The position numbers and the translations under genes were made by a program. This document shows, piece after piece, positions 5,002-58,362 of a DNA stretch of 64,000 nt. The DNA lies in IMG/VR virus record IMGVR_UViG_3300030399_000348. One strand, 5' to 3'. This DNA comes from a virus. The first letter of the stretch is position 1. The number at the start of each line of letters is the position of its first letter. The notes under the pieces are model-generated. The model was not told the DNA's origin. It ran no database searches and saw nothing but the letters and a program-made list of their open reading frames with translations.

Positions 5002-8000
5002 TTATGATCCCGTCGTAGAGGTTGGCGTTACATAGTTGATGACAATGTTGCCTGTCGTCAGGTATTCGGTGGACGACACGGTGATGTCGCTTGCACCCGT
5101 CTCATCGTAAACCTGATAGGTAACAAAGTAGCTGTACAAACCGGGGTTGGTAACGTCCAACGGCACCACGATTGCGATCTTGCCGACGTAGGCCGAAGTC
5201 GTCGTACCGTTGATAGCATCGTTCTCACCGAAGATATAGAACGACCCGGGTACGGCGGTGCTGGCGAGATGCTGTGCCGCTGGGCTGTTTGCCAAGAAGT
5301 CTGCGACCGACGATGCTCGACGGAATAGCTGTCCTTGGTAGAACAGGTCAACTACTGCGTTGGCTTGCCCACCAGATGGAATGGTGGTGTCTGGCAGGAC
5401 ATCCAGCGATGTAATAAAGCTGTTTGCAGGCAAAGCACCAGCGCCCAATGGGGCGAACAGCGGGTCTTGAACCAATGGAATCCACACGGTATCCGTGGGG
5501 ATGACAACTCCGATATCATACGAACCATCGGCCTTTGCACAGCGGAGCAGTGGCAACGAAACGCTGGTGACACCTGTAATCGCCTGAACCTGACTGACGA
5601 GTTCCGACTGGTAAAGCGTACCCTGTGCGTTGTCGAGCACGATGCTGATAGCCGTGCGAATCTGGGGATCAACCACCTCAGTCGAAGCGTTCGCCTGAAG
5701 TGTAACGGTCATCGTGATGTCCACTGGGCTCGCGACCATCGCTTTGATAATCACGTCTGCCGCCGCAGATTTGGTGATTGCGATCTCGTTGGCGAGAACC
5801 TGCACGTAAGCGGGGTACTCGGTGCTGATCGTGAAATTTTCTGTAGCGAAATAAGAAACCGTAACGGTTCCCCCATCTGGGATGCCGCCCGTGCCGATAC
5901 GAGTCAATTCCCATGCATTCGTAACCGGGTCTTGGCTGAGCGTAAAGTCGATGTTCTCACGCATGACCAGATTGAACTGACCTTGGTTATAGGTGACTTT
6001 GATGTAGCGGTTGAGGTACGGAACTTGGGCACCCACCAAGGTCGTATACCCGATGGTAACGCCGTCCACTATGGCGGCCGATGCCGCAGCCGAACCCGTG
6101 ATATCCAACCCACCGTCCGTAGCGTTGTACAGACCGTCCCAGCCGTCGAGCGTGAGCGTGTGGTACTGATCTGGCGGGTAAATTGGTACACCCGGAGCAT
6201 AGCTCTCGGGCAACCAGATATTGTCCACGAAGCTGAAGGCGTTGTTTAACGGTGTCGGTATCACCCCGTTGAGGACCTGTTGCTCGCCTGTGATGAGGGA
6301 TGGACGCTCGTACACCGTAAATTGGTTGTACGTGACCACCACCTGCTCGAAGTTCTGGATGGCGGACCCAGTGACAAAGCCCGAATCTGGAGCCGACGCA
6401 TAATCTGCGCTCGAATAAGCCGCCGTAAATTGCGACGGGGAAGCTGTGGCGATGATAACGATTTGACCACTCAGGAATGTGGCGACCCCAAGCTGGCTTA
6501 AGGTGACACTCGCACCCTGACCAAAATTATTCGGAGTAGTTACCGTCAGCACGTCGCCTGAAATCTCGATGTTAGTGATCGGCGTTGAGGAGGTCAGCAG
6601 GTTCAATCCGTAGGTGTGGTAGGTGTCTAGTGGAACGATGGTGTAATCAACGCCCCAAGTGTAGGAGGTCGAAAGGTCGGTGCTCAACACCGACAAGATG
6701 TTCTGCGGCACGCCAGTGGCACTGAGCGGCACGTCCATGGCGATGTCGATAATGGCGGGGGTTGCCGTACTCGCCGTGATTGTCTTGGTAACGGGGGCAC
6801 TCGTTGTCGCCGATACGTTAACCTCATCTCCCGCCTCGTTCGAGCCTCCGAGCAACAGGAAATCTGAAGTGTGAATGAGTTCAACCAGATTGCTATTTAC
6901 AATCCCCGTCTCCCCGGTCTGACCCACAACCGAGTCTATGGAGATGATAGGCTGAAGCGGCGGGGTGTAAAGCAGCGACGACTGAAGTCGTGCGAATAGC
7001 CCGAAAGTATAGGAGCCCGAAGCACTCGCGAGAGCGGCAACGGCAACTTTGTTGGTCGCTGGAATACCGTTGATAAGCTGCGGAACCTTAGCCGTGGTAG
7101 CCCCCGAGCCTACATACTGATAGCACAGATCGTTCGGGTTGACAAAGACATTCCCGCCCACGTTATCGATTTGAGCGCGTTCAATGCCGAGGTAGAAAGT
7201 GCTCGATCCTCGGGTCACGGCAAGTTCTACGGCCGTGTAGATAGGGGAAGTCAGGGTGCTGAACGATGGAATGTTGAAACGGATCAACTGCGGATCGCTC
7301 AACGTGAGAGGCAGGTACGTCGGTAGGTTGCCATAGGTCCCCACGTTTCCGTATGTGAATGTGACGCTGTTGTTCTGCTGGGTAAGCGTCGTGCCCCGAG
7401 TGTAGATATCCACACAACCATAAACATGCTTCTGGCGGATTGGGTCCCAATCACGGATCATGTCCAGATCGCCAGCCGCCACGATGATAGCCGATATGAT
7501 ACCCGGCGTCTGTAGGGCAGCTACGAGGTAACCGTGGCGTGTGCTTGAGTCGATACCAGTAACGAGACGCGCTTGAATCAAAGCGGCAAACTGCGAGTTG
7601 GACTGTTGGTCGGAACCGTATTGAGCCGCCACGAGATTCGTAACGTTGATGCCCGCAGGAAGACCGTTTACAATCGAGCGAATCGTACCCGCACCGACGT
7701 TGCCTACGGAGCCTGCTGTGGTGCACTCCGCTGGTACGGTCACCGCCCACCAACCCTGCACCGCGTTGTAATAGGAGTTCAGGTTAGCGACGTTGAGCAC
7801 CGCCGACCCACGGGTGATGAAGTTCAAAGCGGGCGTGCTGGCATCTGCGATGGTTGCGACCGTCGCGTTTTCAGGAATCGTAATGCTCTGCGTGGGCTGT
7901 GTGTACGTGAAGAACGTCAGGATTGTGGTGGAGTCGGTCGCCCCGCCGCGAGTCAAACCAGCCTGCTCGCCGAGGATATTGAACTGGGTGTCGATCAGGG

Positions 8001-14208: not shown

Positions 14209-17200
14209 TTAGTTCGGTGTAGTCAGCTTGACTGGGAACGAACCCGTCTGCGGTGCCAGCCGCAGCGCCCCGTCATCGTAGACCACCCATGTAAAAGTCT
14301 TCGTAGCCGTAACACCAGAATCCGTCACCGAAATGGACAAGGTGTTGTTTCCGAGACTGCCCGACGCGAACGGCCCAGTCAACGGGATTTTTGCCACGCC
14401 GCCAGAGATGGTCACAGTTCCAACGGTGAATCCCCCGCTGACGATTATTCCGAGTAAAGCTGGGTTTGTGGTAATCACGTTCGTCCCAATTACGTAGAAC
14501 GACAGATTTGTGCGTGGTGAGATAGAAACCACGTTCCCTTTGTCCACGTATCCGAGGATGTTGTACGAAGTCGAATCTGTGTAATCGATCCCAGTATGCA
14601 GTACCAATCCCGAGGCGACTGTAAGAGGGAAAGTTCTGTCGAAATATGCGCCATTGTTGGGCCCACCCACGTCTGTCACGCGGAACGTGACGGGAGGAAG
14701 CCCAATTTGAATTGTGGTGCCTACGATGTTAACTGTCGCGCCTGTCGTGGACGACAACGAAAGCCCCGAAGGTAGAGCCCCACCCACAATAGACCACGTT
14801 GGAGTTCCTAATGCCCCTGTTTCTGTCAACGGGGCTGAGTACGCAACTCCCGCTGTGATGGCAGGCAAAGACACCGTGGTGATGGTCAGCGCCGATGTCT
14901 GCGAAGCAAACGTCGTAGTGACCGAGGCTGTGTTAGGCGGCGTGAGGGTGTCCGCTACCACGAAAGTGACACTTTGACTGAATTGAGTATTGGCTGAACC
15001 CGTGAGTACGCCCGCCGACGAGAGCGAAATTCCATGGAGCGGGAAGTTTACGGATGTCCAACTGTACTGATTGTACCCGTTCGGCAACACACCTATCGGT
15101 ACACCGCCAGTTGCGACGAGTTGAATACCTGAGGCACTCCCGTTGTAGTAAGTGGCTCCGATAACGGCGTTGGGCAGCGGGAACGGCTGGATGCCAATGT
15201 GCAAGAGCGGATCAGCGTAATCCCACCCGACGATGGTCAAGTCTGTGCCCGTGGTGAACGGTACAATGATTTCTGCTGTGTCACCGAGACTATCGACTGC
15301 AAGTATTCTGACCTGCCAAGGGTGGGCTCCAGACGCACCAGTCAAGGGACCGCCTGAATATGTACCCGCAATTGTTGCCGTTGCTCCTATACCGTTAACC
15401 TGTAGCGACAGGCCTGCGGGGAGGAGGTCTGGGTAACCCGAGGTTGGCGCAACCTGCCACTGTATCGGTGGGGTCATGCACAACGTCGCCACGAGCGTTC
15501 CTTGGTACACTTCGCCACGCGGCACAATGCCTACTCCACTGTCGTTGATAGCTCCCGTCAAAACGCTGACTGTCTGTATGGTGAACGACACGGGGCCTGT
15601 TGAGCCCGCGACACTATCCGTCGCGGTGACGGTGATGGGGAAATTCAACCCCGTAGCGCCTGAATAAGTGCCTGAAAACACGCCCGTGCTGGTGTTAAAC
15701 GTGATACCCGTTGGTAATGCACCGACTTCAGCCCATGTGTACGGATTAGGACCACCGAAAGGCGTGCCGCCCGCAGCCTGCATCTGGAACGAATAACCGT
15801 TAGGATCGTCGGTAACAGTCGCTATGCCCACGCCGAGGATGTTTGGAGTGGGACCTGTCACGATTCGCAAACTGCTGTTGTAATTCAACGTCAGTATTGC
15901 AGAGACGGAGGAGCCTGCACCGCGAGTATCGGCCAGCGTGACCGTAATGGGAATGGCGGTTGTGCCCGAAACATAGTTGGTTGGGGGTCCTTCCCACGCG
16001 AAAGCGGGAGCACTCAATACGCCTGTGTTTTGATTCAGCACGAATCCCGGAGGCAAGCCCGTAGCCGTCCAGCCGTTCGGCGTCGTGTAGGGTGGGAATC
16101 CGCCGAAGCCCTGCAATGGGTACGAATAGATCGAATCACTGAATGGCGGCAATAGCGTAGTAACAATCGTCAGTGGGGCGGCAAAGTCGATAGAGAGACG
16201 GTGATACAAATATGCCGTGCCTGTGCTCGCGACTATTTGGAACCAAACGTCAAAGTACCCACTCTCTGTAGGTGTACCTGTGATGTAGAAATTTTGACCC
16301 GTTGGGGTGGAGTCTAGGGTCAGACCCGCAGGAAGTGTCCCCGAAGAAGACCCCCTTGCGTAGTAAACAGACGCCGAGATCGGCGTAACGCTGGCGGGTA
16401 CAGTGATGTAGCTGGTGTTTGTCAGCGCCGTACCAAGCGACACGCTGTCTTGGATATTGTCAATCGGCGAAAAAGCACTCGCTACGGTGTTCCAAGCGAT
16501 TGTCACTGTGCCATGAATTGTGCCCGAAGTACCCACGTACTGGATGACGCTGGTGAAACTTGCGCTCACCGTGCCTGTAAGCGTTCCGTAGATTAACCCC
16601 GTGTGTGCATCGAGCGAAAGACCGGGCGGTAGCGTATTGGTCACGCCCTGCACCGTGGCGGGCACCGTGGCGATCCACGGAGCATCGCTTGGTACGGGAC
16701 TCGTTGGAGTGATCGAGGGGACGAAAGGAGAATTGTAATACGGTTGACGCGGATTCAGGCCGACCACTTCTCCAATGATGTAGGGGCGTGTGTTCGTGTT
16801 TATCGTACCGATGTCCACACCCGGCACCCAACCAAGAGACGCCGCATCATCATGCGTCAATATCGTGTATGCCTGTGATGCTGTAGCTTCGGTGATACCC
16901 TGCAACTGGAGCAGGAGAGGCAACATGTACTGTACGTTGCCATAAACACCCGATGGAGGTCCGCTGATTTCTACTTCTGGAATCACTGGATCGATAGCAA
17001 CCACGATGCCGTCCGACAGAACAGCGCCCGCCTGCACTTGCAACGCCTTTGCTGCCAGTTGTGCAGCTACCGCTCCTTGAGTAGCTGTGGCGGACGGGGG
17101 GCTGCCAGCGGCGTAGTCGATGGTGGGTGAGCCGTTGGAATTCTCCAAAATCAATTGGCTCGACGTGTTGGACACAACGGCAAAGGTGCCATCGTTTCCA

Positions 17201-20200
17201 AGATAGTCAAATCCGCTCACTGTAATGGGGCTGCCGACCGTAAGAGCGGGGAACGTAAATGGCGCGGCGGTGTAAATTGTGGTCGAGGGGGAGCCACTTC
17301 CAGCCGATGCTGTGATGGTGACGGTGCCGGAAATAGTGACTGGACCCGTGGTGACGAGGGCACGACCGTTTAAGGTCATGAGGGAGATGCTGTTCAGCGT
17401 AATGGCGGAAGTTGCGAGAATGTTCCCGGCCCATACATGGTCGTGAGCATCGAAAGTCGCTGCGCTGCCAACCACCCAAACCACGTTCGCGGCCGTAGCG
17501 CCGTTAATCAAAGCGATGGTGGTTGCGGCGGTCGTGACATTCAAAGCCGAACCAACTTGGAAGACGAACACTGGGTTTGTGAGTCCAGCACCGTCAAGCG
17601 TAATCGTGCCGCCCGTGAAGAGCAGCGTGCTGGAAGCAAAGCCGACGAAGCCGGGTCCGCCGTTGTAACCCGTTGGGGTTGCGGTAAAAGTGTGTGTAGC
17701 GTAGGATGCGCTGATCGCCGTCGAGGTCAAGCCATTGAAGAACACGAATGCCGCAGTCAAGTCTGTCTGGTTCTGTGCGACGGCGACGACTTGCTGTGCG
17801 GGTGGGGTGTAATTGAAAGTGCCCGTTATCGTGTTGGTCGGGACTGAACCTACATTGCCGCCAGCAACGTTAGCTATGGTAGCGGACGAGACGACAGCCG
17901 CAGCGAGGATGGCGTAAGTTGCCGCTGTGCCCAACTCCGTAGTAACGATAGACCCCGAGGCAGACCCGCTGATTGCTGAAACTAGCGAGTACGTACCGCT
18001 GGGGGCGGTTGCGGTCGTGCCATTCGGATTGCTCAGTATCAACTGCAAATGCGTAGAGTCTACGCAGTAGAACGTGCCGTTATTGACGGACTGATTAAAG
18101 CCCGAAACAGTGAACTGTTGTCCGATGAGGGCATTTTTCGCCGCACTCGGCTGACTTGTGGCGAATGTATATGTCGTTGTTGGCGCAAACGGAGCGACAG
18201 GGCTCGAAAGCGTACCCGTGGAGCCCGCTGGAAGAGGTGTAGGAAAGGCTTGGGTGAGCGAAGAGATGTAACCGAGCACGGGTACGGTTTCCGCTACGGG
18301 TGTCGCGTTCAGCAGGGTTAACGAGTTCGCAGTGGACGAGAAGCACAAAAACGTGCCGTTATTTGCGGCGTTCTGAAATCCCGAAACAATGAAAGTCAAA
18401 CCCGCGTAGGCATTGTCGCCGCCGCCACTGCAAAATCCTAATGTATCCGTGTACAAAGCGGCAGGCGAAGGCGACGGGTTGTTTACGACTGTGGGAGCGA
18501 CGGAACCCAAGCTGACGTAGGTCCCACCAAGGGTGAATCCTGCGAGGTTTCCTGTTATGGCGAACGGAGTTGCTTTGAACGTGTCTGCAAAGTTCCACAC
18601 GTGATCCACGAAGGCGGGGACAAGGATGGGATCGCTGATCGCGGGCTCAACAGTGATGGTGAACTGCGTTGAGATCATCGTGTTGGGCGATGCGCTGTCA
18701 CGAAGTACGAGTATGAATGAGTACGAGCCCGCCGTGGGGAAGTTTACATCAAACTCAATCTGCCCGTCTACGAGAGTAGCTGGTCCGTAATAGCTGCTGT
18801 TGCCGAAAGGGGCCAAGCCCAGAAACGTGTAGGGGAATACTCCACCGAAAACTGGAACCATCATCCCGAATTGCTGCCCCGCGTAGATGGTTGGTTGATC
18901 GAGAGAACCGAATTGCAATGCTTGGGGCACCAACGTCATCGTGTACGTCTGTGTGGCGATGGCACCGATAGCATCCGTCACCTGAACAACTGCCGAGAAC
19001 GTCTTGGTGAAATCGGAAGTCGAATTGTACGTGCTTGGGGTGCCTGAAATCAGCCCAGTGTTGGGGTTGATGCTGAGACCGATAGGCAGGTTGCCTGCTG
19101 GGATGCTCCACGTATACGGCGGCAAGCCTCCCGGAATGGGGTTGGCGGGATTGACATTTCCCACCTCCATTTGCACTGAGTACGGCGTACCAACTTGTGC
19201 AATGCCGAGCGAAGTTCCCAATTGCGTCAGTACGTTGCCCTTGGCGTCAGTCTGACCTAATGCGATCTCGACCAGCAGATCGGTGCTTACCGTGATGGAG
19301 AATGCCGCTTCAGCGATGAAGAACGGCACGCTGGAATCCTGTACGGCGAAGTTGATGGAGTAGGTCCCCAAGGCCAGCGGGGTCCCACTCAATACGCCGT
19401 TGATGCTCAGCTTCAAACCTGCGGGTAAACCATCCGTGTACCAAGCATACGGCGGGGTGCCGCCTGATGCCGCCATCTGGAATTCCTGCATCGCCTTACC
19501 GACGTAAATGGTCGTCGGTAATTGCGTCGTCGTGATAGTCACGGGGATCGAAGACGTGAGAGCGTTGAAACTGTTCTCATAGACGGGTACGATCAATTCC
19601 TTGGACTTCGGACGGCCTTCGATGGGGAATACGTCGATACCCATCGTGCCAAGCAGGGACGAGGCGTTGGAGAAACGAGTCGTTGCGATTCCAAGCTTGA
19701 TTTCGTTGGTCAGCGTATCGCGCACGAGGAAACGAGCGATCACTTCCCAAGGGTTGGCGGTTGACGCCACGCCCGTAGCGCCTGTAATCTCGAATCCTTG
19801 CTGACCACCGATGCCCAACGTGCCTGTCAAGGAGGTCGAGGTTGTGGTTGTTCCCGTGAACTGCTGATCGACCACGAATATCCCCACCGTAAGCTGACGC
19901 ATCAAAACAACGGACGGACTATAGATGGACGAGTTGTACAACTTGCGGGTCTGGATTACAACGTCCAGCGGACCCGAGATCGAAAACTGCTTGGTCAAAA
20001 GTGACGCGGAGAGCGGCAACCACCCCGTGCTTGAACCATCAGGCCAGAGAACCTGCCACTGGTCGGCGTTCACATACGCGGGTGCAAGCTGGAGCGTTAG
20101 AGGCTGTCCGAGTTGAAGCGTGGTGCTACTGAATACAACGTCTGCTGAAACGATGGCGTCGGGGAAAGCGAGCCCGGATGGTGTCAGCGAAGAAACATTG

Positions 20201-20505
20201 TTCCAGATGTTGGGGACGGGGGTATTGTACACTTCCCAATCGAATGACGCGGGCGGACTGCCCGCGAGGTTGGTCTGCATGTCCATCCGATACGAGCCTG
20301 TGGACAGTTGGGTCGTGTAAAACCGTGGCGTACCTGTGTACGGGTTTGGTGCGGGTATGGAGGCGGCGGGAAGCCCGTTGAGAATGATTTCCCAGCCCGT
20401 GTAGGCGGGACCAGCAGGCGGCAACCAGTTAACGGTCAGGACGTTGTTGTTGTCAATCGTCGCTGACGTTGAGCCCACAAAACCGAGATTTGGAGGATTA
20501 AGCAT
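14209..20505 (-). CDS. giant Ig-like (He_PIG-type) repeat virion protein containing an ice-binding DUF3494-like domain
   Basis: Many GGTPPY.W...LPAGL.L...G.ISGTP repeats. Internal LGTAATYAILA...VFVFQVGSAL...NGATAANVVWVVGSAAT..GNILATSAITL...LNGRAL segment. Confidence 0.85.
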   Translation of the reverse strand: MLNPPNLGFVGSTSATIDNNNVLTVNWLPPAGPAYTGWEIILNGLPAASIPAPNPYTGTPRFYTTQLSTGSYRMDMQTNLAGSPPASFDWEVYNTPVPNIWNNVSSLTPSGLAFPDAIVSADVVFSSTTLQLGQPLTLQLAPAYVNADQWQVLWPDGSSTGWLPLSASLLTKQFSISGPLDVVIQTRKLYNSSIYSPSVVLMRQLTVGIFVVDQQFTGTTTTSTSLTGTLGIGGQQGFEITGATGVASTANPWEVIARFLVRDTLTNEIKLGIATTRFSNASSLLGTMGIDVFPIEGRPKSKELIVPVYENSFNALTSSIPVTITTTQLPTTIYVGKAMQEFQMAASGGTPPYAWYTDGLPAGLKLSINGVLSGTPLALGTYSINFAVQDSSVPFFIAEAAFSITVSTDLLVEIALGQTDAKGNVLTQLGTSLGIAQVGTPYSVQMEVGNVNPANPIPGGLPPYTWSIPAGNLPIGLSINPNTGLISGTPSTYNSTSDFTKTFSAVVQVTDAIGAIATQTYTMTLVPQALQFGSLDQPTIYAGQQFGMMVPVFGGVFPYTFLGLAPFGNSSYYGPATLVDGQIEFDVNFPTAGSYSFILVLRDSASPNTMISTQFTITVEPAISDPILVPAFVDHVWNFADTFKATPFAITGNLAGFTLGGTYVSLGSVAPTVVNNPSPSPAALYTDTLGFCSGGGDNAYAGLTFIVSGFQNAANNGTFLCFSSTANSLTLLNATPVAETVPVLGYISSLTQAFPTPLPAGSTGTLSSPVAPFAPTTTYTFATSQPSAAKNALIGQQFTVSGFNQSVNNGTFYCVDSTHLQLILSNPNGTTATAPSGTYSLVSAISGSASGSIVTTELGTAATYAILAAAVVSSATIANVAGGNVGSVPTNTITGTFNYTPPAQQVVAVAQNQTDLTAAFVFFNGLTSTAISASYATHTFTATPTGYNGGPGFVGFASSTLLFTGGTITLDGAGLTNPVFVFQVGSALNVTTAATTIALINGATAANVVWVVGSAATFDAHDHVWAGNILATSAITLNSISLMTLNGRALVTTGPVTISGTVTITASAGSGSPSTTIYTAAPFTFPALTVGSPITVSGFDYLGNDGTFAVVSNTSSQLILENSNGSPTIDYAAGSPPSATATQGAVAAQLAAKALQVQAGAVLSDGIVVAIDPVIPEVEISGPPSGVYGNVQYMLPLLLQLQGITEATASQAYTILTHDDAASLGWVPGVDIGTINTNTRPYIIGEVVGLNPRQPYYNSPFVPSITPTSPVPSDAPWIATVPATVQGVTNTLPPGLSLDAHTGLIYGTLTGTVSASFTSVIQYVGTSGTIHGTVTIAWNTVASAFSPIDNIQDSVSLGTALTNTSYITVPASVTPISASVYYARGSSSGTLPAGLTLDSTPTGQNFYITGTPTESGYFDVWFQIVASTGTAYLYHRLSIDFAAPLTIVTTLLPPFSDSIYSYPLQGFGGFPPYTTPNGWTATGLPPGFVLNQNTGVLSAPAFAWEGPPTNYVSGTTAIPITVTLADTRGAGSSVSAILTLNYNSSLRIVTGPTPNILGVGIATVTDDPNGYSFQMQAAGGTPFGGPNPYTWAEVGALPTGITFNTSTGVFSGTYSGATGLNFPITVTATDSVAGSTGPVSFTIQTVSVLTGAINDSGVGIVPRGEVYQGTLVATLCMTPPIQWQVAPTSGYPDLLPAGLSLQVNGIGATATIAGTYSGGPLTGASGAHPWQVRILAVDSLGDTAEIIVPFTTGTDLTIVGWDYADPLLHIGIQPFPLPNAVIGATYYNGSASGIQLVATGGVPIGVLPNGYNQYSWTSVNFPLHGISLSSAGVLTGSANTQFSQSVTFVVADTLTPPNTASVTTTFASQTSALTITTVSLPAITAGVAYSAPLTETGALGTPTWSIVGGALPSGLSLSSTTGATVNIVGTTIQIGLPPVTFRVTDVGGPNNGAYFDRTFPLTVASGLVLHTGIDYTDSTSYNILGYVDKGNVVSISPRTNLSFYVIGTNVITTNPALLGIIVSGGFTVGTVTISGGVAKIPLTGPFASGSLGNNTLSISVTDSGVTATKTFTWVVYDDGALRLAPQTGSFPVKLTTPN

Positions 20506-54473: not shown

Positions 54474-54715
54474 AGAGCGACAAAATTTACATCAACCTGT
54501 TGGTCTACAACTACGACGCTTCGCCGCGCCATGAGTACGTGCGGCACACATGCGGTGACGAGAAGAAGGCCCGCACGCTGGCGCTTCGGCTGCACAAGTT
54601 GATGGACGCCCGCAAGGGCAACCAGACGACTCGCTGGCTGGAGCAGCACACAGGCATCAGCGGATTCGTTGAGCGAATAGACGGCATCTACAAAGAAGTC
54701 ACGACCCGCTTGTAA
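54470..54715 (+). CDS. hypothetical protein
   Basis: ATGA overlap and GGGGGA SD. Starts MKSDKIYINLLVYNY. Confidence 0.65.
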   Translation: MKSDKIYINLLVYNYDASPRHEYVRHTCGDEKKARTLALRLHKLMDARKGNQTTRWLEQHTGISGFVERIDGIYKEVTTRL

Positions 54716-54738
54716 AAATGCCCAGACTACGGTATTGT
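54710..54738 (+). promoter_or_regulatory. sigma70-type promoter
   Basis: TTGTAA-N17-TATTGT. Confidence 0.65.
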
Positions 54739-54901
54739 ATTAGTGTATGCCTGCGGTTTACCGCTGCTCAGCCGAAAGGCGATAGGGCGTGACAGCCTTA
54801 GAGTATGTCCCGCAGACCCCCGACCACAGGCACGTGTCACCGTCCTGAGGGATGCGAATGAATTGGGGGATTTGTTGCATGTTGAAAGACTTGCAACGTC
54901 T

Positions 54902-54977
54902 GGGCCTGTAGTTCAGTTGGGAGAACGCTTCCTTTGCAAGGAAGAGGTCATCGGTTCGAGCCCGTTCAGGTCCACCA
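54902..54977 (+). tRNA. tRNA-Ala(TGC)
   Basis: Cloverleaf, loop TTTGCAA, G3-U70, encoded CCA. Confidence 0.95.
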
Positions 54978-55153
54978 AGTTTCGCCGATGCAGTTGGCGC
55001 TCATCCGCCTGATGAAGCTGCACTGGCAAGGGAGCCGATAAGCGAACGGGGATCATGCCCTCGCGTTAGGTCGGTCGGAGACGGCGTTTGTCCGCTTAGT
55101 TTTCCCGCAAGGGTGCAGGACATAGGCTCTAGCTCTTTTCTGAAAAATAGTTG

Positions 55154-55182
55154 TTGCAAGTTTCCTGAATACCGAGTATTGT
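55154..55182 (+). promoter_or_regulatory. sigma70-type promoter of leader/tRNA operon
   Basis: TTGCAA-N17-TATTGT. Confidence 0.75.
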
Positions 55183-55196
55183 AAATAGAGACGCTT

Positions 55197-55328
55197 ATGA
55201 ACTCCATTCTCCAAAACGCAGGTGTTATCGTGACGGTCGCCGCTTGTAGCGCAGCCGAACGCGGTACTGTCGCCGCTGGCGCGGCGGCGGTAGGAGATAT
55301 GGTGTCCTCGGGAGGGTTTGGAGAGTAA
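55197..55328 (+). CDS. putative attenuator leader peptide (43 aa, GNN-codon rich)
   Basis: MNSILQNAGVIVTVAACSAAERGTVAAGAAAVGDMVSSGGFGE. 26 GNN codons. The 3' end overlaps the antiterminator strand. Confidence 0.7.
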   Translation: MNSILQNAGVIVTVAACSAAERGTVAAGAAAVGDMVSSGGFGE

Positions 55329-55352
55329 CAACTTCCAAATCAACGGTTTCCG

Positions 55353-55385
55353 AGGACGCTCAAGCAGAGCGTCCTTTTTGTTTTT
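55353..55385 (+). terminator. intrinsic terminator (attenuator) upstream of the tRNA cluster
   Basis: AGGACGCTC-AAGCA-GAGCGTCCT followed by TTTTGTTTTT. Confidence 0.85.
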
Positions 55386-55397
55386 GCGGTAAAATTT

Positions 55398-55473
55398 GCG
55401 CGGGTAGCTTAGCGGCTAAAGCATCGCCCTTACAAGACGACTATCGTGGGTTCGAGTCCCACCCGGCGCACCA
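55398..55473 (+). tRNA. tRNA-Val(TAC)
   Basis: Cloverleaf, loop CTTACAA, CCA. One mismatch each in the acceptor and anticodon stems. Confidence 0.85.
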
Positions 55474-55489
55474 AGATTGGATTGAAAGA

Positions 55490-55717
55490 ATGAAACGCAA
55501 CAGATCACGCATCATAAAACTGGTCACGACCGTAGAGGTTGAGAAACAGGATTGGGGCTTCCAAGCATGGCACCCCACGTTGGGATTAGTTGCGACTGCC
55601 GACACCGAGGATGAAGTCCTCGACAAGATGGACAAGATGGTGGTTCGGCAATTAGAGTTTGATCTGACTCACGGCACGTTGAAGAGTGTCGCGAAGCCAG
55701 CAAAAATGGGCCGGTAG
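55490..55717 (+). CDS. HicB-like small protein
   Basis: VEVEKQDWGFQAWHPTLGLVATADTEDEVLDKM resembles the HicB N-terminal fold. Stop codon lies inside the next tRNA. Confidence 0.55.
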   Translation: MKRNRSRIIKLVTTVEVEKQDWGFQAWHPTLGLVATADTEDEVLDKMDKMVVRQLEFDLTHGTLKSVAKPAKMGR

Positions 55718-55782
55718 CATAACTGGGAATGCATCTCGCTTGCAACGAGAAAGAAGGAGTTCGAATCTCCCCGTGTCCACCA
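55708..55782 (+). tRNA. tRNA-Ala(TGC), slightly irregular acceptor/T stem
   Basis: Loop CTTGCAA, G3-U70, CCA. Confidence 0.8.
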
Positions 55783-55795
55783 ATTTTAGAAAGAT

Positions 55796-55870
55796 AGCGG
55801 CGTAGCCAAGTGGTAAGGTCGAGACCTGCAACGTCTTTATTCGCGAGTTCGATTCTCGCCGCCGCTTCCA
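55796..55870 (+). tRNA. tRNA-Cys(GCA)
   Basis: Loop CTGCAAC, U73, CCA. Confidence 0.9.
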
Positions 55871-55888
55871 AGTTTTGTTTTGTAATGC

Positions 55889-55967
55889 GGGGCCGTGGTG
55901 TAGCCCGGTCTAACATGCTTCCCTGTCACGGAAGAGATCGCGGGTTCAAATCCCGTCGTCCCCGCCA
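55889..55967 (+). tRNA. tRNA-Asp(GTC)
   Basis: Loop CTGTCAC, G73, CCA. Confidence 0.9.
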
Positions 55968-55973
55968 AATTTT

Positions 55974-56050
55974 GGTGACGTACCATAACTGGCTAATGGG
56001 CTCCCCTGTCACGGGAGAATATAGGGGTTCAAATCCCCCCGTCACCGCCA
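55974..56050 (+). tRNA. tRNA-Asp(GTC)
   Basis: Loop CTGTCAC, G73, CCA. Confidence 0.9.
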
Positions 56051-56057
56051 AGTTTTT

Positions 56058-56133
56058 GCATCCGTGGCGAAACGGGAACGCGGTGGTCTGCAAAACCACT
56101 ACTGAGTCGGCTCGACACCGACCGGGTGCTCCA
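56058..56133 (+). tRNA. tRNA-Cys(GCA), atypical T-loop
   Basis: Loop CTGCAAA, U73, CCA. T-loop CTCGACA. Confidence 0.8.
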
Positions 56134-56209
56134 AGATTAAAGCCTAGTATATTGGGCTTTAGAGGCAGAAAGTCAGCTTTCGCATTGTATATTAGGTCTT
56201 TGAAAATTT

Positions 56210-56585
56210 GTGTTGAACTGGACGACCGCCGCTGCGTAGATATACGTCCTGTGCTTGGAAGCGTTGGCGAAAGCCTTCCCAACCAAGTCCGGTGTTGAGC
56301 GCAGGGGAGGAAGTTCGGGACTGCAAAGAACAGCGTGCCAGCTAACGGCTGGGCGGCACCCGCAAGGGTGTTGACGATTAGAGCTACAGAGACGAGCCGA
56401 TTCAGTTCGGGTGAAACGAGCAATCTCCACGTGCAGCAAGCCCAAATAGGCTGAGCAGGATTGTGTTCGATCCGTTCGCTTCGCAAGAGGCGGGTAATCA
56501 GCGGGTAGGGTGCTTGAGCGTTGTAGCGATGCAACGCCTAGAGGAATGGTCGTCCGCGACAGAATCCCGGCTATAGGTTCAACAC
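56210..56585 (+). ncRNA. rnpB: RNase P RNA (type A-like, reduced S-domain)
   Basis: P1 GTGTTGAAC/GTTCAACAC and P2 GGACGACC/GGTCGTCC. CR-I GAGGAAGTTCGGGA pairs with CR-V ACAGAATCCCGGCTA (P4). ACAGAGACG, GGTGAAAC, GAGGAAT and a P18 hairpin are present. Confidence 0.9.
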
Positions 56586-56727
56586 GAATAAGTTGTGTGA
56601 TCCGCGTGGACACGAAAGTGAAAAACGCTGTAGCTGCGGCTGCGAGACTCGATCCCCGACAGGGGCGTTGGTTCCGGGAAACCCGAATCAATTGTGGCGA
56701 AAGCCGACCGACTGGGACACACGTAGT

Positions 56728-56802
56728 GCGGACATAGTTCAGTGGTAGAACGCATCCTTGCCAAGGATGAGGTCGCGGGTTCGAGCCCCGCTGTCCGCTC
56801 CA
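56728..56802 (+). tRNA. tRNA-Gly(GCC)
   Basis: Loop TTGCCAA, U73, CCA. Confidence 0.95.
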
Positions 56803-56906
56803 AGATTAACATCTGCCTATAAGCCAAGCGGCGAAAGCCGGGGCAGAGACCGACCGAAAGGCGTCCATGCATGAATGGACATAGTGAAGAGTTCTTGGCG
56901 TTGTTC

Positions 56907-56981
56907 GCGGGCGTAGTTCAGCGGAAGAATGCGTGCTTCCCAAGCATGAGGTCACGGGTTCAAATCCCGTCGCCCGCTCCA
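56907..56981 (+). tRNA. tRNA-Gly(CCC)
   Basis: Loop TTCCCAA, U73, CCA. Confidence 0.95.
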
Positions 56982-57014
56982 AGCTTTAACGCAAAAGATT
57001 TTGAGTGGTAAGTT

Positions 57015-57090
57015 GGGCCTATGGCGCAGTTGGGAGCGCGTTTCCATGGCATGGAAAAGGTCGTGAGTTCAAATCTCACTAGGTCCACCA
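57015..57090 (+). tRNA. tRNA-Ala(GGC)
   Basis: Loop ATGGCAT, G3-U70, CCA. Confidence 0.93.
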
Positions 57091-57101
57091 AATTTTATTG
57101 T

Positions 57102-57177
57102 GGCGTTGCCGTCTATCGGTTTGGACCTTGCACTCTCAATGCAATGACGGTGGGTTCGACTCCCATCAACGCTACCA
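57102..57177 (+). tRNA. tRNA-Glu(CTC)
   Basis: Loop CTCTCAA, CCA. Confidence 0.88.
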
Positions 57178-57184
57178 AGTTTGA

Positions 57185-57260
57185 GCACTTTTAACTCAGC
57201 GGCCAGAGTACCACTTTCACACGGTGGGAGTCGCAGGTTCGAATCCTGCAAGGTGCACCA
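57185..57260 (+). tRNA. tRNA-Val(CAC)
   Basis: Loop TTCACAC, A73, CCA. Confidence 0.92.
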
Positions 57261-57279
57261 AGTGTGGTAGAATAGAGCG

Positions 57280-57684
57280 ATGAATAGCTCAAAAGCAGGA
57301 AACGTGGCTGTAGCCGCTGTGCTGGCTGCGTTAGTGAAGAACGATGAGAACGTTTTGATCCCATTCGGGGACGCCCAGCGGTACGATCTGGTGACCTTGA
57401 ATGACAACGGTAGCGTTACGCGGATTCAGGTGAAGAAGGGGCGGTTGAGCAAGAACCGCACGGTTATTCGGTTCAACACCTGTAGTCAGTCACGAAATTG
57501 CCCGCGTAAGAGTTATCGAAACGACGCGGAGATGTTTGCGGTGCACGTTGCGGAACTCGGGAAGATTTATTTCGTCCCCGTAGCCGATGCACCAGAGGCG
57601 GGATGCCAATTACGTTTGACGCCGCCAAAGAACAGCCAACGTGAAGGCGTCCGTTGGGCGAAAGATTACGATTCGGGCCTGTAG
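57280..57684 (+). CDS. PD-(D/E)XK homing-type endonuclease in the tRNA cluster
   Basis: VLIPFGDAQRYDLV...RIQVKKG...Y....EMFAV pattern. TAGAAT just upstream. Stop codon overlaps the next tRNA. Confidence 0.85.
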   Translation: MNSSKAGNVAVAAVLAALVKNDENVLIPFGDAQRYDLVTLNDNGSVTRIQVKKGRLSKNRTVIRFNTCSQSRNCPRKSYRNDAEMFAVHVAELGKIYFVPVADAPEAGCQLRLTPPKNSQREGVRWAKDYDSGL

Positions 57685-57750
57685 CTCAGTTGGGAGAGCG
57701 CACCGTTCGCAACGGTGAGGTCAGGGGTTCAACTCCCCTTAGGTCCACCA
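57675..57750 (+). tRNA. tRNA-Ala(CGC)
   Basis: Loop TTCGCAA, G3-U70, CCA. Confidence 0.93.
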
Positions 57751-57753
57751 GAT

Positions 57754-57831
57754 GTTGGCTTTAGCTCAGGAACAGAGCACTCCCATTAACGGGGGAGGGG
57801 TCGGACGTGAAATGCAGTCCAAGCCACACCA
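57754..57831 (+). tRNA. degenerate tRNA-like gene (anticodon possibly AAC)
   Basis: TAGCTCAG...GAGC D-arm, CTCCC/GGGAG stem with 8-nt loop ATTAACGG, non-canonical T-loop, ends in ACCA. Confidence 0.5.
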
Positions 57832-57942
57832 AGGTTACCGAGTTTAGGGAGTTTATCAAAACTTCATAAACTCATGGGTGGGTTGCCGCGATCATGAGGC
57901 GGTGTAAAATCCTTGCCGGGGTTTCCTTTCCACCAAGTTTTT

Positions 57943-58034
57943 GTGCCTGTAGCTCAACTGGCAGAGCGGCTTCCATCAGCCTCGAAAGAGGCGCGTGGAG
58001 CAGGTCGGAGGTTCGATCCCTCTCGGGTACACCA
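57943..58034 (+). tRNA. tRNA-like RNA with Ala identity and a hairpin replacing the anticodon loop
   Basis: Normal acceptor, D and T arms and CCA. The anticodon stem encloses 23 nt including GCCTC-GAAA-GAGGC. Confidence 0.7.
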
Positions 58035-58036
58035 GT

Positions 58037-58112
58037 GCGCTGTTAGATTAGCGGCTAAATCGCTACCATGACAAGGTAGAGACCGTTGGTTCGAGTCCAA
58101 CACGGCGTACCA
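58037..58112 (+). tRNA. tRNA-Val(GAC)
   Basis: Loop ATGACAA, A73, CCA. Confidence 0.9.
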
Positions 58113-58286
58113 AGATTAGGGGCAATGCCTCTAGGCTGGCAGGAAATACGGCAAATACCTGTGATGCTCGCACAGCAACGCCTGCAAGCGTGAAGTGTGT
58201 GGGTTTTGGTACAGCCAAGTCCCAAAGCGGTTGAAGGTCGCTGTCCTTGCAGGGATTGTGGACAACAACCGCAGAGTTTAAGCTGT

Positions 58287-58362
58287 GGGGTATCCGTCTA
58301 TCGGTTTGGACCTCTGACTTTCAATCAGATGACGAAGGGTTCGACTCCCTTATACCCTACCA
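58287..58362 (+). tRNA. tRNA-Glu(TTC)
   Basis: Loop CTTTCAA, CCA. Confidence 0.9.

Follow-up and report, generated by a model that had tools for sequence, protein, structure and literature searches.

Why a transfer RNA (tRNA) cluster in what is likely a phage genome should begin with a promoter, a short open reading frame (ORF) crowded with G-starting codons and an intrinsic terminator is the question raised by positions 55154-58362 of a 64,000-nucleotide (nt) stretch of the IMG/VR virus record IMGVR_UViG_3300030399_000348, which was analysed as a whole and is hereafter called the window. We read this arrangement, with a probability of about 85%, as a leader-peptide attenuator, in which ribosome-coupled transcription attenuation would supply phage tRNAs and RNase P RNA on demand. 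This proposal had been made from the letters of the window alone, and the computed folding and the comparison with relatives presented here support it with small corrections. The promoter, the 43-codon ORF, the terminator and the tRNA cluster all lie where the original prediction had placed them.

The predicted sigma70-type promoter (55154-55182, plus strand, as are the other parts of the unit) consists of the -35 hexamer TTGCAA (55154-55159), a 17-nt spacer and the -10 hexamer TATTGT (55177-55182). With eight of 12 consensus matches it falls under the cut-off of the promoter scanner; the stretch 5' of it is A/T-rich, and its position is kept in all 12 aligned homologues, with TTGACA variants in L150 and L183. 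The leader ORF (43 codons, 55197-55328), which other assemblies of this sequence annotate as a gene, contains 26 GNN codons (G followed by any two nucleotides) among codons 8-43, ten of them consecutive, and one TGT, exactly as had been counted before. This corresponds to 26 of 42 codons where the background is 33% (p=1.4e-4); of 4892 segments of 36 codons from the long ORFs of the window, not one holds more than 24 GNN. Fifteen of the 16 GNN types occur, only GAC being absent, a coverage that is weak by itself given 26 draws (p~0.06). Inside the leader lies a GC-rich hairpin (55265-55292), a candidate pause site for RNA polymerase. Further on, an antiterminator (55301-55360) with the stop codon at its apex can form between the last ten codons on one side and, on the other, the 23-nt spacer plus the terminator's 5' arm. 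The terminator itself (55352-55385) is made of a stem of 10 base pairs (55352-55376) and a T-run (55377-55385). The first operon tRNA starts at 55398, and all 14 tRNAs of the operon read G-starting codons or Cys. A blind scan for a promoter, a short ORF and a terminator returned this unit as the sole match in the whole window and, in the loci of relatives, only units directly before tRNA blocks; a pattern search for terminator-tRNA junctions returned one already-known locus only.

Antiterminator and terminator had been predicted to exclude each other, which both computed folding and covariation bear out. The computed energy of the window antiterminator is -31.8 kcal/mol vs -17.7 kcal/mol for the terminator, with a z score of -3.5 reached by none of 200 shuffles. 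Other tRNA blocks were studied in relatives of the window genome, and over 20 units the antiterminator beats shuffled controls in every case (z -2.3 to -4.6). The stop codon is typically found at the tip of a long hairpin, and the distance from the stop codon to the terminator stem is 19-25 nt in 19 of the 20 units and exactly 23 nt in 13. For many units little could be read from equilibrium folding that included the finished terminator; the transcript was therefore folded only as far as the terminator loop, the ribosome masking to 9 nt past its A site. Computed in this way, with and without the ribosome footprint, the terminator arm of the window is sequestered when a ribosome stands on codons 1-33 and free beyond, and the fold without any ribosome is antiterminated in 18 of the 20 units. 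By this boundary, the claim that stalling on any GNN or Cys codon would open the operon is slightly too broad: 12 GNN types and Cys lie in the predicted sensing zone (about codons 8-33), but GAG, GAT and GGG occur only after codon 33, among the last ten codons, which cannot sense. In the four non-G leader types, cognate codons account for 80 of 149 codons inside the antiterminator-sparing zone vs 5 of 71 beyond it. The corresponding counts in G-type leaders, those of the kind found in the window, are 254 of 397 and 57 of 102, a small contrast that is explained by the antiterminator strand being itself G-rich.

The 12 G-type units were gathered via neighbouring genes and not via the leader, and include phages with helicases down to 36% identical. 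In all of them the leader sits between a promoter and a terminator, and no homologue keeps the terminator while losing the frame or the GNN bias. Leader length ranges from 33 to 50 codons, the net length differences (-30 to +21 nt) are all multiples of three, block codons are enriched 1.6- to 2.0-fold, and no leader lacks a Cys codon (background 0.66% per codon). G occupies 59% of first codon positions, as against 22% and 24% of second and third positions. Differences from the window leader fall on second positions almost as often as on third positions (55 vs 65), whereas the neighbouring gene for a 75-residue protein, used as control, shows 38 vs 92; this argues for selection on codon class and RNA structure and not on the peptide. 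The leader peptide is 63-95% identical among close relatives, and distant homologues retain only its composition. At the RNA level, the outer helix of the antiterminator is 91.5% paired over the 12 homologues, with three pairs changed on both sides, four terminator pairs are likewise changed on both sides, and three-way changes involving both leader strands and the terminator are found in G003, G006, L183 and L185. In L182, a gene for 225 amino acids has been inserted between the terminator and the first tRNA, and the leader upstream is intact. The GC-rich hairpin to which the original prediction had drawn attention has a counterpart of altered sequence in all 12 G-type leaders (segment energy -14.7 to -24.8 kcal/mol), and its equivalent is weak in most non-G leader types. 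It ends before 55301, does not overlap the antiterminator and does not compete with it as the trp-type protector (1:2) hairpin would.

The agreement between leader and tRNAs is not confined to the G block. In the complete relative G003 (456 kilobases, kb) the tRNAs are grouped in blocks, and a leader followed by a terminator stands at the head of five of them: Val/Gly/Ala/Cys/Asp/Glu, Ile/Thr/Gln(UUG), Tyr/Leu, Ser with Leu(UAA), and Trp/Gln(CUG)/His/Arg/Asn/Lys. The five leader peptides are mutually unrelated and each is written in the codons of its own block; among the 120 permutations of leaders over blocks, the true one ranks first. Co-variation of leader codons with cluster anticodons, which had been proposed as a check, is therefore found in the relatives, every first-position tRNA block but the amber-suppressor one having its own terminator and a leader matched to its tRNAs. 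The agreement reaches into synonymous codons: TTA is confined to the leader of the Ser block, which holds Leu(UAA), and is missing from the Tyr/Leu leaders, and in G003 the Gln(UUG) block leader has CAA and the Gln(CUG) block leader CAG, although the Ile/Thr/Gln leaders of G001 and G002 also hold one or two CAG. Both the Ile/Thr/Gln and the Tyr/Leu leader types recur in G001, G002 and G005. Pro/Met/Phe tRNAs are preceded by a sixth leader, which is itself rich in these three amino acids and is conserved between G002 and G003 (L014, 6696-6773, plus strand; L018, reverse strand, 6387-6458 counted on the reverse complement). It came to light post hoc, when this composition was searched for, shows modest enrichment (p 0.06 and 0.01) and has alternative hairpins that lack a U-tract; it is possibly a Rho-dependent or degenerate sixth unit. 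Counted together, the six leaders of G003 sample all 20 amino acids and their blocks read 59 of the 61 sense codons. The sequences show that five or six such units split the genetic code between them in this clade. Sorting of the blocks by first codon letter was rejected, as it is true only of the G block and the others are mixed.

Other features of these loci were recorded alongside. The rare codon CGA (0.5% background) occurs in one or two copies in every Ile/Thr/Gln, Tyr/Leu, Trp-block and Pro/Met/Phe leader (L011, L014, L016, L018, L020, L022 and L023), and may be a built-in slow codon. In G002 and G003, the tRNA-Phe pair directly follows the end of a short ORF that carries a conserved LDLFT motif together with a GC hairpin (L014, just 5' of 13413, plus strand; L018, reverse strand, just 5' of 12570) and that is possibly another leader. 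L012, L020, L022 and L023 have a leaderless block in which one or two amber-suppressor tRNAs (CUA) occur alongside tRNAs whose anticodon loops are 8 nt long.

The elements described above suggest the following course of events. The host sigma70 RNA polymerase would start about 8 nt before the leader ATG, and a ribosome, which is assumed to load there, would follow the polymerase, perhaps aided by a pause at the 55265-55292 hairpin. With an ample supply of charged tRNAs for Val, Ala, Gly, Asp, Glu and Cys, the ribosome would proceed past codon 33 and cover the 5' strand of the antiterminator, in which case folding predicts that the terminator forms and that transcription stops before the tRNAs. 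A ribosome that is slow on those codons, or that never loaded, would instead leave the antiterminator to form first, and the resulting read-through would yield tRNAs for the sensed codons together with the RNase P RNA that matures them. The outcome would be a negative feedback on decoding capacity. Because the upstream hairpin shares no positions with the antiterminator and the fold without ribosome is antiterminated, failed translation is also predicted to open the operon. Candidate triggers are a shortage of amino acids or tRNAs during phage protein synthesis, or cleavage of host tRNAs, among which the sequence cannot discriminate; given that extra tRNA genes help more when a tRNA is limiting or destroyed than when an amino acid is missing, tRNA shortage is favoured as the selected signal.

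Several observations weigh against the attenuator. The 5' untranslated region of the window leader is only about 8 nt long and has no clear Shine-Dalgarno sequence. In two units there is no contrast between the absence of a ribosome and a ribosome at the stop codon, and in seven of the 20 the finished terminator wins at full equilibrium whatever the ribosome position, so that the switch would have to rely on co-transcriptional folding and kinetics. One tRNA-Ala(UGC) lies upstream of the attenuator, the last three tRNAs of the operon may be expressed from a possible internal promoter brought by an inserted endonuclease gene, and tRNA-Gly(UCC), behind the RNase P RNA, has been deleted from the window copy relative to G001 (56590-56727 vs L001 3320-3474) though the window leader carries three GGA. 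The statement that the downstream tRNAs read exactly the leader codons is thus exact for the amino acids but not for the anticodons. A leader was searched for at the amber-suppressor/Lys(UUU) block of the relatives and none was found. Moreover, the homologues are kin, and the counts pooled over them are neither independent nor to be taken as probabilities. Finally, a comparable prediction, for Streptomyces coelicolor ilvB, failed in experiment: mutation of its candidate control codons had no effect (PMC1262725). That result is also a precedent for a leader that reports overall translation (initiation failure, antibiotics, ribosome loss) and in which codon identity is minor, as is the Anabaena trn operon, which is induced by translational stress (PMC8421152); with the antiterminator formed without ribosome in most units, any translation failure would open the operon. 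As a full explanation we nevertheless find this improbable, since it accounts neither for five unrelated leaders that match their own blocks down to split codon boxes nor for cognate codons that end at the antiterminator boundary. As a second input, general translation sensing is compatible with codon-specific attenuation.

Explanations that make the ORF either the sole product or an accident were also weighed. The leader could encode a small functional peptide, with the terminator ending its transcript and the tRNAs being expressed from other promoters or by leak-through; its conservation among close relatives, its hydrophobic character and its being called as a gene would fit. Second codon positions that change nearly as fast as third ones, the spread in length, distant homologues sharing composition only, unrelated peptides that track the tRNAs of other blocks and the lack of a Pfam or PHROG match make this very unlikely. 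We would give as little credence to a switch made of RNA only or controlled by a protein (T-box-like binding of tRNA, or a phage antiterminator protein) in which the ORF is incidental: the alternative structures are real and conserved, but Rfam, searched at gathering and at E-value thresholds, matched neither a T-box nor a riboswitch, only codon position 1 shows the G bias, and indels leave the frame intact. As for a chance origin, by which a GC-rich hairpin region beside an ordinary terminator would produce a G-rich ORF, 121 decoy terminators were taken from unrelated viral contigs by an unspecific scan for terminator motifs. Among them, 48 had a short ORF at similar spacing and ten of these ORFs were compositionally biased at p<0.01, yet none preceded tRNAs; chance leaves the block match, the fixed spacing and the conservation unexplained, is refuted by the permutation test and the homologues, and has a negligible probability.

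Attenuation by a translated leader is well known from thrL, ilvL, ivbL, trpL, hisL, pheL and leuL, in which a short leader with control codons precedes an antiterminator competing with an intrinsic terminator, and stalling leads to read-through. The window unit works like attenuators of the thrL, ilvL and pheST type but departs from them in its target genes and in the protector hairpin, its untranslated state being predicted to be on. With the classical systems it shares, as do its relatives, a codon-enriched short leader right behind the promoter, an intrinsic terminator between leader and regulated genes, an exclusive antiterminator that would, by computed folding and covariation, be masked by a ribosome at the leader end, and control codons so placed that a stalled ribosome leaves the antiterminator free (boundary at codon 33); such features are also described in PMC1262725. 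Classical attenuators regulate genes for amino-acid biosynthesis or tRNA synthetases, whereas here tRNAs and RNase P RNA are downstream. Unlike leaders of the thrL/ilvL type, that of the window samples six amino acids and most of their synonymous codons, and it is found in a phage-like genome, where it forms part of a set that spans the entire code. In agreement with the novelty that had been claimed, no published leader-peptide attenuator for tRNA genes was found in a literature search that left most subscription journals outside its coverage.

Among more distant likenesses, aminoacyl-tRNA synthetase attenuators (Escherichia coli pheST; the Streptomyces trpS and leuS candidates; PMC1262725) likewise sense charged tRNA via translation and control the translation machinery, but their target is the charging enzyme for one amino acid and not tRNA genes. 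The mgtL and corL leaders of mgtA and corA (PMC11552253) are also off upon full leader translation and on when it is inefficient; they act through Rho and sense Mg2+ via Pro and acidic codons, whereas the window unit has an intrinsic terminator and tRNA-matched codons. In Anabaena, the trn operon controlled by TrcR (PMC8421152, PMC10272220) is similarly a mobile tRNA array, which stays silent as long as translation is unimpaired, but a repressor acts on promoter repeats at initiation, as one switch for the array that is not codon-specific. The tRNAs of phages T5 and SP15 replace depleted host tRNAs in the face of anticodon nucleases, as those of the window may do; their supply is attributed to a strong promoter, and the term attenuation is absent from PMC11555353. 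T-box riboswitches share antitermination that depends on tRNA charge, but they bind uncharged tRNA directly and have no ORF, and the window unit has no T-box match in Rfam. T-boxes are reportedly predicted upstream of tRNA-Ala genes in some clostridia.

The regulated operon (55398-58362, plus strand, as are all features of this paragraph) encodes tRNAs for Val (UAC, CAC, GAC), Ala (UGC, GGC, CGC), Gly (GCC, CCC), Asp (GUC, two copies), Glu (CUC, UUC) and Cys (GCA, two copies), and includes a bacterial class A RNase P RNA (56210-56589; RF00010, 175 bits). Behind tRNA-Val, an ORF of 75 amino acids without known family (55490-55717) is conserved in the clade; its protein has 17 homologues, found only beside tRNA-Val in this clade, and would be co-regulated with the tRNAs. 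The inserted gene for a PD-(D/E)XK endonuclease (57280-57684, PF11645) has its own extended -10 element (57263-57273). Outside the attenuator, an upstream promoter (54710-54738) precedes the second tRNA-Ala(UGC) (54902-54977), which keeps its position in eight relatives, and no terminator was detected in the window between this tRNA and the leader. At 57943-58031, a tRNA-like gene (Rfam tRNA, 43.5 bits) has an inserted GAAA-capped hairpin in place of the anticodon loop; a similar element lies at the same place in G001, and it is possible that it represents a decoy or non-decoding tRNA. A degenerate tRNA-like cloverleaf at 57752-57833, which has an anticodon loop of 8 nt and whose T arm is atypical, received no call from ARAGORN or Rfam. 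Structured non-coding stretches among the tRNAs (54745-54900, conserved at 79% in G002, 54985-55125, 56600-56727 and 58118-58286) gave no credible Rfam match and are candidate novel RNAs.

The window encodes a DnaB-like helicase, a ribonucleotide reductase, HNH-type endonucleases and an endolysin, together with weak matches only to head-decoration and tail-tube proteins; Terminase_6N gave no match. On the minus strand, 14209-20505 encodes a protein of 2098 amino acids with immunoglobulin-like and ice-binding-like domains. The relatives of the window are IMG/VR records of up to 455.7 kb (G003, rated complete), and BLAST against cultured phages gave isolated tRNA matches only. No RNA polymerase beta match was obtained in G003, which is consistent with sigma70-type promoters being read by the host enzyme. 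Relatives of the helicase (36-57% identical) are found in metagenome-assembled genomes (MAGs) of Acidobacteriota, a weak sequence-based pointer to this phylum as host; the phage RNase P RNA had no BLAST match in four Acidobacteriota MAGs and hence gave no confirmation. In an Acidobacteriaceae MAG, a short ORF with Leu, Ile and Val codons, followed by a terminator, lies upstream of ilvB (L192, about 1150-1330), which suggests that the probable host phylum also uses leader attenuators.

It has long been asked why phages carry tRNA genes, and leaders of the kind described here would spell out to which shortages the phage responds. They would extend ribosome-mediated attenuation to a new class of targets, tRNA genes and RNase P RNA, and the design would account for the sorting of the tRNA genes into blocks. 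Only tentatively, and with some doubt, can it be suggested that the clade possesses a genome-wide decoding monitor of six blocks, each with a codon-matched attenuator, in which the loss of a single tRNA, including its cleavage by a host anticodon nuclease, would open only the block that replaces it. If true, this would be an inducible and target-specific counter-defence made only of RNA and the ribosome. Such leaders may also be used, as they stand, to sense codon-specific decoding capacity or the activity of anticodon nucleases.

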